From Acidimicrobiia bacterium (lineage in GTDB: Bacteria; Actinomycetota; Acidimicrobiia; Spongiisociales; Spongiisociaceae), in assembly GCA_041576165.1 (NCBI GenBank), contig JBFGLM010000019.1, positions 1-64,000 on the forward strand: a stretch of 64,000 bases of DNA, read 5' to 3'. Of the stretch, positions 25,402 through 30,821 are shown one piece after another (the first letter of the stretch is position 1; each line of letters begins with the position of its first letter). The notes under the pieces are model-generated. The model ran no database searches and was not told where the DNA came from. It saw nothing but the letters and a program-made list of their open reading frames with translations. Both the position numbers and the translations under genes were made by a program.

Positions 25402-27048
25402 TCATCGGACTTCGCAGTCCGTCACCGGCAGGCCAACCTCGAGCGCGTACGAGCGGATGGCCTCGCGGCGGCTCGATTGGATCTGGATCGCGTCGCATGT
25501 CGCCTCCAAAGCCGCTTCCGGCAACGAAACCGAGGAGTACAGCGACGCGGCCGCCAGCAGCATGGCGGCGCCGTCGAGTGGACCAACCGCATGGCCGAAC
25601 TCAGTCAAGCTGTCGGCCGCGCCTACCCGCCCGCGCCGTTCCTCGACCGGCGTGTAGAAGGTGAAGAAGCTGTCGACTTGCTGCTTGGTCCAGCCGGAGA
25701 CATCGGGTTGGGCTCCAAGCAGTGCCACGTATACCGGCGCATCCTGTGGCACCAGATTCGGGTCGGCCGCGATGTGCAAACTGAGGGGTGGGCGCAGGTC
25801 TCGTCCTGTGTAGCGGGGCCAGCCGGCGAACGGTGTTCGATATAGGCCGAACGGGCGTACCGAGTCGTACAGGACCACCGCACCATCCGCCGTCTCGGTG
25901 TCGAGGACGGCGGAGACCGCCCGCCAGTCGGGAAACTCCTTGGTGGAGAGCTGAGTCCAGAGCCCGCCCAGAGACCACAACGCCAGACCAGCGACAACCG
26001 CTAGGCCTGTTCCCGCCAACCACCAGCGGGACCGCCCCTCCACTGCGACATGGGTGATGGCTCCGGCCAGCGCCGCCAGCGGTGGCCACCAGGAGAAGAC
26101 GTAACGGTCGAAGTACGGCTGGCTCTCGGGGGTGCGTAGAAAGAAGAGCAGCGCGAAGCCGATCGGCACTGCCACCAGCGGCCAGAACCACCAGAGCCCG
26201 GCGACACGAGTTCGCACCGACGGCCATGCGCCGGCAGTCAACGCGACTACCAGTCCGAAGATGCCAATCTCCTGAGAGAGGACCTCTGGCAATTCGGAAC
26301 CAAAACGGGAAAGGCCACCCCAGGACACGCTGGCGTCCACCGTGTACTCGGCCAGCTCTGACGACAGGCGCACAAACACGGGTATCTCGACCAGCACCAA
26401 CCCGGCAACCGCGGCGGCAACGGGGAGTTTCCACCGTGTTTGGGTGACCTCATGGTTCTGGATGCGCAAAACCGCGAGCCAGGCGGCAGTGGCGGCCAGC
26501 ACTATCGGGGGCTCGACGGTCCGGGACAGCGGGAGCAGGAGAGCGGCCACGACGGCAATCGCTCCGCCGAGCTTGGATCCTTCCCGGAGCCATCGGTCGG
26601 ACTCCTCCAAGAACAGCAACGTGAGAAAGAGGGGGAGCGCGTACGGGCGCGCATACGCGGTCACTGCAACCAGGCCGGGAGCGATGGCCATCAACGCAAT
26701 CGCCACCGGCGCCCCGATCCCCAGCCTCGACCCGTTGAGGAGCAAACCCAGAACTATCAATGACCCGATTCCCCATAGCGCCGGCAGCAATCGTTGGTGG
26801 ATGTCGCCGACACCGATCACCCGTTGGAAGGTCGCGTTGAGGAGCGGATCGAGGGGCGGCTGCTCTTGCGCAAAACTCGCATCGACGATCTCACCAAACG
26901 ACCAGCTGTAGGACCGAACCTGGCGCAGCTCGTCGATGTTGTATGGCTCCTCCAGGACCGCAATGATGAGCACCAGCGCGCCCACCACCACGCCGAGGAC
27001 CGAAGCGATCAGAACTGCGCGGGACGAGGACTGTGTCACCCGGACCAT
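25402..27048 (-). CDS. GT-C fold membrane glycosyltransferase (ArnT/PMT-like)
   Basis: Acidic DE in the first loop (YNIDELRQ), QPPL, YARPYAL, roughly 11-13 TM segments and a soluble C-terminal region. Confidence 0.75.
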   Translation of the reverse strand: MVRVTQSSSRAVLIASVLGVVVGALVLIIAVLEEPYNIDELRQVRSYSWSFGEIVDASFAQEQPPLDPLLNATFQRVIGVGDIHQRLLPALWGIGSLIVLGLLLNGSRLGIGAPVAIALMAIAPGLVAVTAYARPYALPLFLTLLFLEESDRWLREGSKLGGAIAVVAALLLPLSRTVEPPIVLAATAAWLAVLRIQNHEVTQTRWKLPVAAAVAGLVLVEIPVFVRLSSELAEYTVDASVSWGGLSRFGSELPEVLSQEIGIFGLVVALTAGAWPSVRTRVAGLWWFWPLVAVPIGFALLFFLRTPESQPYFDRYVFSWWPPLAALAGAITHVAVEGRSRWWLAGTGLAVVAGLALWSLGGLWTQLSTKEFPDWRAVSAVLDTETADGAVVLYDSVRPFGLYRTPFAGWPRYTGRDLRPPLSLHIAADPNLVPQDAPVYVALLGAQPDVSGWTKQQVDSFFTFYTPVEERRGRVGAADSLTEFGHAVGPLDGAAMLLAAASLYSSVSLPEAALEATCDAIQIQSSRREAIRSYALEVGLPVTDCEVR

Positions 27049-27055
27049 GGCTGTG

Positions 27056-27742
27056 TCACCGAGACAATTCGCTCACATACAGCTTGAGAAAACGTAGGCC
27101 AGTGGGGATGGCCTTGGCGTTGGATTCGCCACCAATCCGTTGTCCCTCGTGGGTGGGAAACTCGACCACCTGAGCTCGGCGCTGGTAGGCCCGGATCGAT
27201 GTCTGGTATTCGATCGTGTATCCGGGCCCGTCCGGGTCCAGCCGGTCCCAGGCGTCCATCGTGATCGCGCGGTAACCGTTGATCATGTCGGTGATTCTCG
27301 GCTGTCCCCGGCCCCAGGTGAGATATGCGAGCCAGTTGAAGAACAAGTTCGCCCATTTGCGCGGTCGGAACCAGCTCGAGTCCTCTTCGTTGACCGCTCC
27401 CGGCATCATCCGGGAGGCAATGACCAGGTCGGCGCCCGTCTCCAGGTACGGCCGGAAACGAGGTATGTCGGCCGGATCCTCATTCCCGTCTGAACTGAAG
27501 AATATGAGGGCATCGGCCTTGTCCCGAGCGTGAGCGAATGCCAAACGGAAGGCTTCGCCTCGACCCGGGCTTGTCTGACCGAGAACCTCGATCCCGTGAT
27601 CCCGCAGGATGTCGGGCGAGGAATCGGACGAATTGCCGTCGACGGCGAACACCAGATCAACAGCCTCGGTGGGCAGGTGGGGGAGCAGGTGGGGCAGAGC
27701 TTCCGCTTCGTTGCGATTGAGGATGGCCAGCCCGATTCTCAC
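27056..27742 (-). CDS. GT2 polyprenol-phosphate glycosyltransferase (DPM1-like)
   Basis: [46 protein letters not shown] start overlaps the gmd stop. Confidence 0.85.
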
Positions 27743-28755: not shown

Positions 28756-28774
28756 CGTGTCCTTCCTCACGTCA

Positions 28775-29914
28775 TCATCGTGCCAACGAGTCAGTGAGCG
28801 CATCCACCATCTCAATCGAGACATGGTGCCCGTTGCCGACGTACAGGCCGCACTCGTGGATGTGATCCGCCACGGGAGAGGCTCCCCCGTAGGGGCGCAA
28901 ACCGTACTCCGCCGCAAATGGCTGGCGCAAAAGGTTGCCCGCCACCACTGGGCGGCTCTCTATGTCCAGCTTGGCGACGACCTCGACGACCCCGGCGGCT
29001 GCTGCCTGGTCCCGGGCGATCAGCGGGAGCGCGAACGAGCTCATGCCATCGGTTCGGTAGTCGGTCCACAACCACGCCGGGGCAGTATCCAGAAAATGTG
29101 CCATGTTCCGATTCCGAACGCCGATGCGCTCGTCGAGACGCTCGAGCTGACGCAGGCCCAAGAACGCGTTGACTTCGGTTGAACGGAAGTTGAGGCCCGC
29201 CGAGACGAACAGGAAGCGGGCGTCGTGGTTGGGATGCGCTGACGAATGTGCGGCGTATCGGGTTGTTTCGCGGGCCAACCCATGTCCCCGCATCAGTCGA
29301 AGCTCTTCGGCCAACTCCGGCTCGTTGGTGGAGATCATGCCCCCTTCGATGGTGGACATGTGGTGCCCGTAGTAGAACGAGAAGGTCGAGCCCAGACCGA
29401 AAGTGCCGACTTTGTCGGAACCGTGGCGGGCGCCATGAGCTTCACAGCAGTCCTCGAGGACAACGACGTTGTGGCGATGGGCCGCTTCCAGCACCTCGTC
29501 GGTGAGGGCATCGAGCCCGAGAAGATGAGTGACAAACAAGATGTCGATCTCATCGTGCTCGATGGCCGCCAGCACCTGCTGGGCATCCACTCCCAGGGTT
29601 TGGCGATCGACATCGAAGACCACGACTTCGTGCCCCAGCAGCAGCGACGGCGTGACGTTGGTGCTCCATGTGACTGCGGCCACCCCGACCCGGGGCCGGC
29701 GCGACAAACGGCGGGCGACGGTGGCGACAAGCGCAAAGTTGGCCGTGGTACCCGAGCTGACGAAGACGGAATCGGTGACCCCCAACCATGCCGACCACTG
29801 ACGCTCGAACTCCCACACGAGCTCACCCTGAGTGAGTCGCTGGTGCGTACGGAGCCACGAGGCCAGGGCGTCGACATCGTCTTCGGTGACCGTATCGCTA
29901 GCTAGTCGCCACAT
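28775..29914 (-). CDS. PLP-dependent sugar 3-dehydratase (ColD-like; DegT/DnrJ family)
   Basis: [20 protein letters not shown] and [14 protein letters not shown] (His at the usual Lys position), RPVVAGN. Confidence 0.8.
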
Positions 29915-30821
29915 GGTCCCGATACCAGTCGACAGTGGATTTAAGCCCCTCACCCAGACCGGTCTCGATCGCCGGCCACGCCGGAATGAGCGAGCGCAGT
30001 CGAGCGGCCGATACGTCCTTGCGGATCTGGCCATCGGGCCCACTGCCCGAGAACAGCACCTCGCCTGTGAAGCCGACAGCGTCTGCGGCCATGGCGGCCA
30101 GCTGCCGGATCGAATGCTGACGGGCGGGTGCCACGTTGAGGGACACGTTCAGCGCCGGCCCGCCGGCGATCTTCGCGACGAGCGCGGCGAGATCCTGGAC
30201 ATACACGTATTGGCGCAAAGCGATTCCGGTGCCGAAGAACTCGACCTTGTCTTCGCCGGCTACCCGGGCGCGTTCGGTTTTGTCGATAGCGGCCGCCAGA
30301 AAATGGCTGCTCTCTTCCCCGAAGTGGTCGCCGGGACCATAGAGGTTGGCCGGGATCAGAGCCGTGTACGGGACGCCGTATTGTCCGTGGAGCGCTTGGG
30401 TTCCGTGCCACAGAGCACGCTTGGCCGCGGCGTACGCGGCGTTGGTCGGCGGGGGCGGACCCGCCTCGATCATGTCTTCGTTCAGGGGATAGTGGTCGTC
30501 GGCCAGCCGGTCTGGGTACATGCACGTCGACAGCATTGAGATCAGGTGCTGGGGCCGGTGTCGTCGCAGAGCGTTCAGGATGTTGGCGTCGATCCGGAGA
30601 TTGTCGATGAAGAAGTCCGCCTGTCGGGCGATGTTGGCGGTGATCCCACCAACCCTAGCGGCCAGGTGCACCACGGTTGCCGGGCGCCACTCGTCAAAGG
30701 CGTCATCGACCGCCTTGCTGTCGGTGAGGTCGAGGTCAGTCGACGAGAGTGCGCGCGCTTCGGGAAGCTGGGCGGAGACGGCGCGCCCGAGGAAACCGCT
30801 GCCGCCTGTGATGAGAAGCAC
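29898..30821 (-). CDS. GDP-L-fucose/GDP-colitose synthase (Fcl/ColC-like epimerase-reductase)
   Basis: TGGSGFLG, HLAARVGGI.AN, STCMYP, YAAAK, PANLYGPGD.F, SHFL, GTG.ALR, PDGQ.RK. Confidence 0.9.
   Translation of the reverse strand: MLLITGGSGFLGRAVSAQLPEARALSSTDLDLTDSKAVDDAFDEWRPATVVHLAARVGGITANIARQADFFIDNLRIDANILNALRRHRPQHLISMLSTCMYPDRLADDHYPLNEDMIEAGPPPPTNAAYAAAKRALWHGTQALHGQYGVPYTALIPANLYGPGDHFGEESSHFLAAAIDKTERARVAGEDKVEFFGTGIALRQYVYVQDLAALVAKIAGGPALNVSLNVAPARQHSIRQLAAMAADAVGFTGEVLFSGSGPDGQIRKDVSAARLRSLIPAWPAIETGLGEGLKSTVDWYRDHVATS

Follow-up and report, generated by a model that had tools for sequence, protein, structure and literature searches.

A predicted operon for colitose synthesis and its transfer through a lipid carrier in an actinobacterium

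A compact five-gene operon in the window (the whole 64,000-nt stretch of DNA that was analysed), from an uncultured Gram-positive actinobacterium, likely makes the rare sugar colitose, charges a polyprenyl carrier with it and transfers the sugar outside the cell. In the proposed route, Gmd would convert GDP-mannose to GDP-4-keto-6-deoxymannose, a ColD-type enzyme would remove the 3-OH using a PMP cofactor and His184 as the acid/base, and an Fcl/ColC-like SDR would epimerise C5 and reduce C4 to yield GDP-L-colitose; these three steps are assigned because of family membership and conserved residues. On the cytoplasmic side of the membrane, a small peripheral GT2 may then charge polyprenyl phosphate with the sugar of GDP-colitose. 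The polyprenyl-P-colitose would be flipped by a protein encoded outside the operon, and on the outer side a GT-C enzyme may use it to add the sugar to an envelope glycan or a protein. The polyprenyl-P-colitose intermediate is suggested by sequence similarity and gene neighbourhood. The initial annotation knew of no characterised example of such a system, and a literature search likewise found no paper on lipid-linked colitose transfer of this kind; if the reading is true, this would be a lipid-carrier route not previously described for the 3,6-dideoxyhexose type of sugar.

Operon organisation and genomic context

The five genes are packed on one strand within positions 25402-30821 (Table 1), and the genes, order and span initially annotated as a tightly coupled operon were all recovered, with junctions that overlap or nearly abut. 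As read from the sequence, the ColC and ColD genes overlap by 17 nt, with the ColD ATG inside the ColC end, a 19-nt gap separates ColD from Gmd, Gmd and GT2 share the 4 nt GTGA (GT2 start GTG and Gmd stop TGA), and GT2 and GT-C are 7 nt apart. The Gmd start is an ATG preceded by the RBS-like GAGGAAGG, and the length of the GT2 product is that of the called protein P0271. The neighbours on either side have no connection with glycan synthesis (two-component regulators, SDR and CMD; MarR-like, DUF4383 and MFS), and no further glycan-assembly genes were found at the window's locus. No GtrA-like flippase is encoded in the operon, the sole PF04138 gene of the genome lying on a different contig. The cassette, described as self-contained in the initial annotation, is therefore not fully so. 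Among the operon proteins, Gmd alone passes an NCBIfam equivalog cut-off, the other four falling below all named cut-offs.

Table 1. Genes of the putative colitose operon (window coordinates).
Gene product	Position	Strand	Assignment or remark
Fcl/ColC-like SDR, 307 aa	29898-30821	-	Predicted GDP-4-keto-3,6-dideoxy-D-mannose 5-epimerase/4-reductase (GDP-L-colitose synthase)
ColD-type PMP-dependent sugar 3-dehydratase (predicted), 379 aa	28775-29914	-	His184 at the aminotransferase-Lys position
Gmd, GDP-mannose 4,6-dehydratase, 338 aa	27739-28755	-	TIGR01472 above cut-off
Small soluble GT2, 228 aa	27056-27742	-	Predicted polyprenyl-phosphate colitosyl (6-deoxyhexosyl) transferase, GDP-sugar donor
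GT-C-fold polytopic membrane glycosyltransferase (predicted), 548 aa	25402-27048	-	Rare family, no Pfam model

Conservation of the cassette and its variants

The order ColC-ColD-Gmd-GT2 is kept in related genomes (G600, G606 and G699) and in metagenome contigs (L019, L020, L022 and L023), and GT2 follows Gmd in all eight loci of the window's clade in which that DNA is visible. A GT-C-type membrane protein adjoins the cassette in 5 of the 6 assessable loci; GT2 and a GT-C-type protein thus travel with the cluster. Members of one and the same GT-C family occupy this place in the window, L023, L106 and L107. The corresponding position in G699 holds a different, 514-aa membrane protein that is remotely related (hhalign 82%, E 1e-5; match to Agl23, E 4e-5), and no member of the window's GT-C family was found in the 1.1 kb past GT2 in L020 or in 7.3 kb of L059. 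Elsewhere, members of this family adjoin Gmd and Fcl-like genes (L005, L009/L010 and L013) and GT2 genes. In the complete related genome G057, Gmd-GT2-GT-C is present together with an Fcl-like gene but ColD is missing; the GT2 there is 68% identical to that of the window, and the GT-C is related. Related genomes suggest that the module is sugar-swappable; without ColD, the sugar carried would be a 6-deoxyhexose, for example L-fucose. An independent analogue of the operon lies on a Haladaptatus plasmid, where gmd, an SDR gene and a ColD-like gene (with the His) are divergent from a second group that encodes a GT2, GtrA and a polytopic membrane protein (576 aa).

The GT2 and GT-C proteins

GT2 matches PF00535, and in NCBIfam it scores best against AglJ, Dol-P hexose transferase, PpgS and ArnC, each time below the cut-off. 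A search with the GT2 family profile gave as its top hit the Dol-P-mannose synthase of P. furiosus (5mlz, E 4e-15, positions 1-211), followed by ArnC (2e-6), GtrB (1e-4) and GpgS (1e-3, N-terminal 85 positions only). The AF2 model (pLDDT 91.4) returned ArnC, DPMS and GpgS as the top Foldseek matches, with a low identity (20-24%) to solved members in the alignments. GT2 is predicted to be a polyprenyl-phosphate colitosyl (6-deoxyhexosyl) transferase with a GDP-sugar donor.

The 548-aa membrane protein has no match of its own in a Pfam search and a weak match to TIGR03663 (Agl23, E 9.7e-7), PMT_2 being matched by 14 of 40 members of its family. The family is rare (249 representatives at E<=1e-3 among 1.84 billion), and its profile found no match by sequence among solved structures; the closest clusters in the ESM Atlas are those of PMT_2/PMT. 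The AF2 model (pLDDT 94.7, pTM 0.92) has a C-terminal alpha/beta domain at about residues 375-548, and the first 45 Foldseek ranks are taken up entirely by GT-C enzymes (STT3, ArnT, ALG9/12, PglB, AglB, Aft, Emb, Pmt4 and DPY19). Directly past the first membrane helix, E40 is invariant and D39 conserved in the family. On the strength of the model, the protein is predicted to be a GT-C-fold membrane glycosyltransferase. Oligosaccharyltransferases rank slightly ahead of ArnT, and a lipid-PP-oligosaccharide donor is therefore still compatible by fold alone.

It could be argued that GT2 works in the cytoplasm as an ordinary Leloir colitosyltransferase, acting directly on a lipid-PP-linked repeat unit or another cytoplasmic acceptor, with GT-C using a different donor, e.g. 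polyprenyl-P-mannose. No hydrophobic segment was found in GT2, unlike GtrB, ArnC and archaeal DPMS with their membrane helices, and its fold is equally near to the soluble glucosyl-3-phosphoglycerate synthase GpgS and to ArnC/DPMS; the absence of any passed cut-off for a named polyprenyl-P transferase and of a flippase gene also fits this reading. It is nevertheless considered unlikely: Dol-P-mannose synthase matches the GT2 family profile along its entire length and GpgS just in the N-terminal 85 positions, all four top NCBIfam matches are lipid-phosphate transferases, a GT-C-type protein stays beside GT2 in 5 of the 6 assessable loci, even where the GT-C family differs, the haloarchaeal analogue also has GtrA, and the window's locus offers no other glycan-assembly machinery.

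Nature of the transferred sugar

Gmd is assigned by TIGR01472 (498.8 bits; cut-off 415) and PF16363 (E 1.6e-133), and is the only Gmd of the genome above the cut-off. The SDR, the genome's only Fcl-like gene product, matches PF01370 (E 1.6e-44), scores 202.7 bits for GDP-L-fucose synthase in NCBIfam, under the cut-off of 500, and has GDP-L-fucose synthases as top PDB matches (E 1.4e-49); it shares 31% identity with E. coli O55 ColC, no more than with E. coli Fcl (34%). It keeps the Ser/Cys/Tyr/Lys/His equivalent to E. coli Fcl positions 107/109/136/140/179, among which the Cys and His positions serve epimerisation in Fcl. The SDR is not assignable to ColC rather than Fcl because the two functions do not form separate groups in the phylogeny.

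This ambiguity would allow a lipid-linked module with a sugar other than L-colitose, in which the SDR reduces without epimerising to give a 3,6-dideoxy-D-hexose, or flux partly bypasses ColD to give L-fucose or a mixture. The ColD-less G057, with its close GT2 and related GT-C, points the same way, its Fcl-like protein being nested inside the cassette's SDR clade. Against this stand the retained Cys and His, the translational coupling of ColD between the SDR and Gmd, and the composition of the wider SDR clade (SH-aLRT 93, 23 rows including the window's), all of whose loci except G057 have a ColD-like gene. A different sugar thus appears improbable, to about the same degree as a Leloir role for GT2.

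Mannose may also be considered. Pairs of Ppm1 and a PMT-type GT-C are common in actinobacteria, and the nearest solved relative of GT2 uses GDP-mannose, so that GT2 could be a Ppm1-like polyprenyl-P-mannose synthase serving GT-C while an unlinked transferase consumes GDP-colitose. However, the coding regions of Gmd and GT2 overlap at their stop and start codons, and GT2 is the sole transferase beside the genome's only Gmd and only Fcl-like gene, whereas mannose could be handled by further GT2 paralogues and a further PMT_2 gene of the genome. Furthermore, ColD accompanies close GT2 homologues (24/40) and not more distant ones (0/29), as judged by a same-contig proxy in which GT2 and ColD homologues lie on contigs of identical size (contigs of at least 3.5 kb). 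A mannose role for GT2 is thus rated as quite improbable, and colitose is retained as the more probable sugar.

The ColD-like protein belongs to PF01041 (E 6.9e-53), has three Cys only, and is 31% identical to E. coli ColD. In the PDB it scores best against ColD 2gms (E 1.4e-48, residues 4-373), ahead of perosamine synthetase (E 1.9e-32) and E1 (E 3.8e-30). The His reported in the initial annotation at the PLP-Lys site was found in both alignments: in that from the PDB search, the first His of the motif falls on E. coli ColD His188 (window yyGHHmst vs ColD fySHHiat), a site at which the deposited ColD mutant chains carry NH and KH, and in our own it stands opposite the Lys of Per, PseC and ArnB. 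This His is kept in 120/120 of the best homologues. The catalytic role of this His and the distinction between ColD and E1 are described in PMC8987622. Phylogenetic analysis grouped the protein with E. coli O55 ColD inside the ColD clade (SH-aLRT 95), apart from RfbH and Per, and an RfbH-like (Fe-S) Cys cluster is absent from its sequence. Together, these data support its prediction as a ColD-type 3-dehydratase. An aminotransferase making GDP-perosamine or another 4-amino sugar, to which DegT family membership and weak NCBIfam matches to PseC and ArnB might point, is highly improbable given the replacement of the Schiff-base Lys by His, the position of the Lys-bearing Per, PseC and ArnB outside the His clade (SH-aLRT 100), and PDB bit scores of 169 to ColD vs 116 to perosamine synthetase.

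Comparison with known systems

The Gram-negative GDP-L-colitose pathway (Gmd, ColD/WbdK and ColC/WbdJ; E. coli O55/O111 and Yersinia pseudotuberculosis) has the same three enzyme families side by side, including a ColD-clade enzyme that keeps the catalytic His and has no Fe-S cluster. The ColC and ColD genes of E. coli O55 are adjacent and overlapping, as in the window, although the window's ColD and ColC are only 31% identical to their E. coli counterparts. By annotation, the sugar in E. coli O55 is used by cytoplasmic Leloir transferases in a Wzx/Wzy cluster, whereas the window has only the DPMS-like GT2 and GT-C. Unlike the Gram-negative O-antigen hosts, the host of the cassette is a monoderm actinobacterium; six WhiB genes were found in its genome and LpxC was not, which agrees with its earlier description as an actinobacterium lacking LPS.

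Three-component systems are known to carry Glc, Gal, GlcNAc, Ara4N, GalN, Man and pentofuranoses, whereas in the window a GDP-linked 3,6-dideoxy-L-hexose would serve as donor. The scheme of a GT-C with a lipid-linked monosaccharide donor is established (PMC11127046), and GtrA/GtrB/Gtr*, ArnC/ArnE-F/ArnT, CsbB/GtcA/YfhO and PpgS/Rv3779 resemble the operon in having a GT2 that charges polyprenyl phosphate with one sugar and a GT-C that transfers it outside the membrane, both roles being predicted here. In contrast to these systems, the window GT2 has no membrane helices, the operon no flippase gene and the GT-C family no Pfam model. DPMS/Ppm1 with Pmt offers a further parallel, since P. furiosus DPMS, the solved protein most closely related to the GT2 family, is a GDP-sugar-dependent lipid-phosphate transferase and the nearest Atlas clusters and Pfam matches of the GT-C family are PMT_2/PMT. 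Compared with DPMS/Ppm1, the window GT2 is fused to neither membrane helices nor an Lnt-like domain, and its gene lies within a deoxysugar operon rather than standing alone.

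Organization of the operon and its host

The putative colitose cassette spans 25402-30821 and comprises five co-directional genes, all on the minus strand, in the order ColC-ColD-Gmd-GT2-GT-C. The genes are tightly packed: as read from the sequence, the ATG of the ColD-like gene overlaps the end of the ColC-like gene by 17 nt, the ColD-like and Gmd genes are separated by 19 nt with GAGGAAGG preceding the Gmd ATG at 28755, the GTG of the GT2 gene overlaps the Gmd TGA (GTGA), and the GT-C gene follows after a further 7 nt. A scan of 24800-31300 for promoters and terminators returned no promoter-like site and five terminator-like sites against 3.5 expected. 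The flanks are devoid of glycan-synthesis genes: one holds two-component regulators together with an SDR and genes of the CMD family, the other a MarR-like ORF, which is divergent, plus genes for a DUF4383 membrane protein and an MFS transporter. The MarR-like ORF was left out of the parts of the system because none of the 87 loci searched showed a homologue beside the cassette, and a regulatory link is thus unsupported.

The host genome is 96.5% complete with 7.5% contamination. Since it encodes six WhiB proteins, no LpxC was found in it, and proteins related to its own bear the label Acidimicrobiia or Actinobacteria, the host is regarded as an actinobacterium without LPS, in agreement with the initial annotation.

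Coordinates of the cassette genes and of other features in the window
Feature	Coordinates	Strand	Remarks
ColC/Fcl-like SDR	29898-30821	-	
ColD-like enzyme	28775-29914	-	
Gmd	27739-28755	-	
GT2	27056-27742	-	
GT-C membrane protein	25402-27048	-	
MarR-family ORF	30909-31268	+	divergent from the operon; start 87 bp from the ColC start
SDR, NAD-dependent epimerase/dehydratase family	22504-23529	-	341 aa; same strand as the operon, 2 kb downstream, CMD-family ORFs between
DUF4383 membrane protein	31450-32682	+	C-terminal DUF4383 domain and weak DUF6320 match; adjoins the MarR-like ORF
Three signalling genes in a row	17796-22071	+	response regulator-HDOD, PAS-GAF histidine kinase, response regulator-HD_5 (HD-GYP-like)
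P-type (E1-E2) ATPase fusion	35972-38332	-	C-terminal hemerythrin HHE cation-binding domain

Sugar-nucleotide enzymes

Gmd passed the NCBIfam equivalog TIGR01472 with 498.8 bits against a cut-off of 415, and neither a second Gmd above the cut-off nor a second close Fcl-like gene was found in the host genome. The product of the neighbouring gene has a DegT/aspartate-aminotransferase-type fold (PF01041, E 6.9e-53, residues 12-375), and the solved structure closest to it is E. coli ColD (2gms, E 1.4e-48, residues 4-373), against 1.9e-32 for perosamine synthetase (partial) and 3.8e-30 for E1. Its GHH aligns with SHH188 of ColD, placing a His at the site of the PLP-binding Lys, which is precisely the residue that is replaced by N or K in deposited structures of ColD mutants. 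This His, which according to the initial annotation marks 3-dehydratases, is kept in all of the 120 best homologues.

Reference sequences (E. coli O55 ColD and ColC, E. coli Fcl, O157 Per, two RfbH, PseC and ArnB) were also included for comparison. In an alignment of 104 rows, the site was occupied by His in 90 and by Lys in 14, the latter including Per, PseC and ArnB. The phylogeny of 28775-29914 against ColD, RfbH and perosamine synthase, as suggested in the initial annotation, was determined by a quick maximum-likelihood tree of 56 of the 104 rows, namely all references, the rows with at least 55% or at most 32% identity, and every third row of the 73 in between. The His-bearing sequences formed a clade (SH-aLRT 100), within which RfbH and ColD sequences made up separate clades (95 each); the window's enzyme grouped in the ColD clade together with E. 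coli O55 ColD and a haloarchaeal protein, and Per fell outside. A function as an aminotransferase or perosamine synthase was therefore rejected on the basis of the His site, the PDB scores and the tree. In addition, the protein is shorter (379 aa, compared with 388 for ColD and 432-437 for RfbH), and its only cysteines are Cys156, Cys157 and Cys355, with the cluster of the RfbH references located at approximately 248-261; length, lack of the Cys cluster and tree position together ruled out an E1/RfbH-type enzyme. According to PMC8987622, ColD is distinguished from aminotransferases by the replacement of Lys by His, and from E1/SpnQ by the absence of an Fe-S cluster. The ColD-like enzyme is thus, as judged from its sequence, a predicted GDP-4-keto-6-deoxy-D-mannose 3-dehydratase; its gene is also translationally linked to that of the sole Gmd.

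The third enzyme is an Fcl-like extended SDR, which scored 202.7 against an NCBIfam cut-off of 500 for GDP-L-fucose synthase. The residues aligned to positions 107, 109, 136, 140 and 179 of E. coli Fcl, which we take to be the Ser-Tyr-Lys triad and the Cys/His pair of GDP-fucose synthase, are all kept. It shares 31% identity with O55 ColC and 34% with E. coli Fcl, two functions that the tree did not separate.

GT2 and GT-C proteins

The GT2 protein (228 aa) contains no hydrophobic segment. Its best NCBIfam matches were AglJ, Dol-P hexose transferase, PpgS and ArnC, all far under cut-off; the top curated score was 79.1 bits for AglJ against a cut-off of 325, and no model of a named lipid-phosphate transferase was passed. 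When a profile (A3, 33 members) was compared with solved structures, dolichyl-phosphate mannose synthase (DPMS) from P. furiosus came first (5mlz, E 4e-15, positions 1-211), followed by ArnC (2e-6), GtrB (1e-4) and GpgS (1e-3), the last of these over the N-terminal part only. The protein has a predicted GT-A fold (model pLDDT 91.4), to which ArnC, DPMS and GpgS are about equally close in Foldseek, where ArnC and DPMS rank at the top. GtrB, ArnC and archaeal DPMS carry C-terminal membrane helices, whereas the GT2 of the window lacks them. This absence is compatible with lipid-phosphate activity, because soluble polyprenyl/dolichyl-phosphate transferases such as PpgS and human DPM1 exist. Polyprenyl phosphate is the probable acceptor of the GT2, as suggested by its similarities and its conserved adjacency to GT-C proteins.

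The 548-aa GT-C protein had no Pfam match of its own, and 14 of 40 relatives matched PMT_2 (best E 4.5e-9). Its AF2 model reached a pLDDT of 94.7, and Foldseek ranks 1-45 were occupied exclusively by GT-C enzymes with a probability of 1.00, the E values being 2.9e-7 for STT3, the best, and 2.6e-6 for ArnT. STT3 and PglB headed this list, as would be expected of an oligosaccharyltransferase; however, the matches at family level were to PMT_2, and no WWDYG-type motif, a mark of oligosaccharyltransferases, was seen on reading the translation, so that such an activity is unlikely. The closest ESM Atlas clusters are PMT_2/PMT. Among its acidic residues, E40 is invariant in 40 sequences and D39-E40 in the 13 closest; this pair directly follows the first membrane helix (10-33), in the first extracytoplasmic loop, and may be the equivalent of the catalytic Asp in ArnT, PglB or PMT. 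The family is rare, since of 1.84 billion representatives 249 reached E<=1e-3, and its profile gave nothing significant against PDB sequences.

Conservation and variants of the cassette

Homologues of the GT-C protein were found in 3 of 60 relatives and in none of the 28 belonging to the same family, and close GT2 homologues (E<=1e-30) in 6 of 400 genomes of the order. A phylum-wide sample did not yield the cassette, because none of its 400 genomes contained a close GT2 homologue at this threshold. The survey of the five-gene neighbourhood showed that the order ColC-ColD-Gmd-GT2 recurs unchanged in three related genomes (G600, G606 and G699). A search with ColD led to 80 metagenome loci being kept, seven of which had at least 57% identity (L019-L025, with L023, L024 and L025 near-identical); these match the window's arrangement as far as their contigs reach, except L021, where the order differs. 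A related GT2 was present in only one of the remaining 73 (L059). Overall, the GT2 gene follows Gmd in 8/8 loci where that DNA is visible. As judged by an HMM of the GT-C family, a member adjoins the cassette in the window, in the metagenome locus L023, in L106 of genome G600 (convergent) and in L107 (upstream). At the corresponding position, G699 encodes a different, remotely related membrane protein of 514 aa (hhalign 82%, E 1e-5; Agl23 E 4e-5), and beyond the GT2 gene of L020 a stretch of 1.1 kb shows only truncated convergent ORFs that have no assigned family.

The reciprocal view was obtained from GT-C loci of genome collections, in a search started from the 13 closest family sequences. 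Members lie beside Gmd and an Fcl-like gene in L009/L010, L013 and the related genome G057, and within a few kb of a GT2 gene in these loci as well as in L012 and L015; neither was found near the GT-C gene in L008, L011 (3 kb) and L014. For the GT2, 24 of 40 homologues at ranks 2-80 on contigs of at least 3.5 kb share a contig with a ColD homologue, exactly equal lengths serving as proxy, compared with 0 of 29 at ranks 81-120.

In the single-contig genome G057 (L005, C1:1192000-1211000), Gmd, GT2 and GT-C genes are adjacent, with the Fcl-like gene 4 kb downstream, and the larger locus also encodes a methyltransferase-GT fusion, additional GT2 proteins and two DUF6395 proteins. A search of this complete genome at E<=1e-20 found no ColD, and the locus may represent the module in a fucose-type form. 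In G600 (L106, C67:1-16000), the cassette is bordered on one side by an ABC-2 transporter pair and on the other by additional GT-C-like membrane proteins in a row (DUF2079, DUF6020 and GtrII-like); a second GT2, an SDR and UDP-glucose dehydrogenase are encoded there as well. This setting hints at an exported envelope polysaccharide as the acceptor, and suggests that several side chains are added to it extracytoplasmically. Lastly, a plasmid of the haloarchaeon Haladaptatus pallidirubidus (L135, NZ_CP085304.1, 221817-234953) has gmd, an SDR and a ColD-like gene that encodes the His and, divergent from them, an ArnC/AglJ-like GT2, a member of the GtrA family and a polytopic membrane protein of 576 aa, which contains about 12-14 hydrophobic segments and has no family match. 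This locus appears to be an analogue of the cassette that was assembled independently and includes a flippase.

Proposed pathway and implications

On grounds of family membership and conserved residues, Gmd, the ColD-type enzyme and the ColC-like SDR would carry out three steps ending in GDP-L-colitose. The GT2 would then load colitose onto polyprenyl phosphate, from which the GT-C protein would transfer it; we infer these two steps because of the nature of the nearest relatives, because the pairing of a small DPMS-like GT2 with a GT-C protein repeats beside these sugar genes, partly with non-orthologous members, and because no other consumer is present. On balance, we lean towards the whole chain, from GDP-L-colitose synthesis through lipid loading to GT-C transfer. 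It fits the three-component glycosylation scheme of PMC11127046. Such systems possess a dedicated flippase (GtrA/ArnEF/GtcA-like), whereas the window's operon encodes none, in contrast also to the haloarchaeal analogue with its GtrA; a single PF04138 gene lies on host contig C11, outside the operon.

The literature searched, most of it openly available, yielded no publication in which a polyprenyl-phosphate donor or a GT-C enzyme is tied to colitose or GDP-fucose, and no such system appeared in the titles, abstract openings and passages of work on colitose in actinobacteria. A broader reading, which we regard as evenly balanced, is that this is the first deoxyhexose lipid-carrier route, in which a DPMS-like GT2 makes polyprenyl-phosphate-L-colitose out of GDP-colitose and a previously unrecognised GT-C family attaches the sugar to the cell envelope in monoderm Acidimicrobiia, with the module being sugar-swappable (fucose-type without ColD, colitose-type with ColD) and having been assembled independently in haloarchaea with GtrA. 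Colitose is an immunodominant O-antigen sugar of Gram-negative pathogens, where it is put on by cytoplasmic transferases. If the broader reading is correct, colitose would be placed outside Gram-negative LPS, three-component glycosylation would also cover GDP-derived 3,6-dideoxy sugars, and such sugars would be added after export to the envelopes of uncultured actinobacteria from marine and soil habitats. Lipid-phosphate-linked colitose (or fucose) would then constitute a new glycosyl donor, and both DPMS-like GT2 and GT-C enzymes would gain a new specificity class. The compact operon, with three sugar-synthesis and two transferase genes, would serve as a toolkit for glycoengineering 3,6-dideoxy sugars onto surface polymers, and pairs of loci with and without ColD would provide a natural experiment on the evolution of donor specificity.

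Elsewhere in the window, the P-type ATPase joined to a hemerythrin HHE domain is an unusual fusion, which might couple metal or oxygen sensing to transport.
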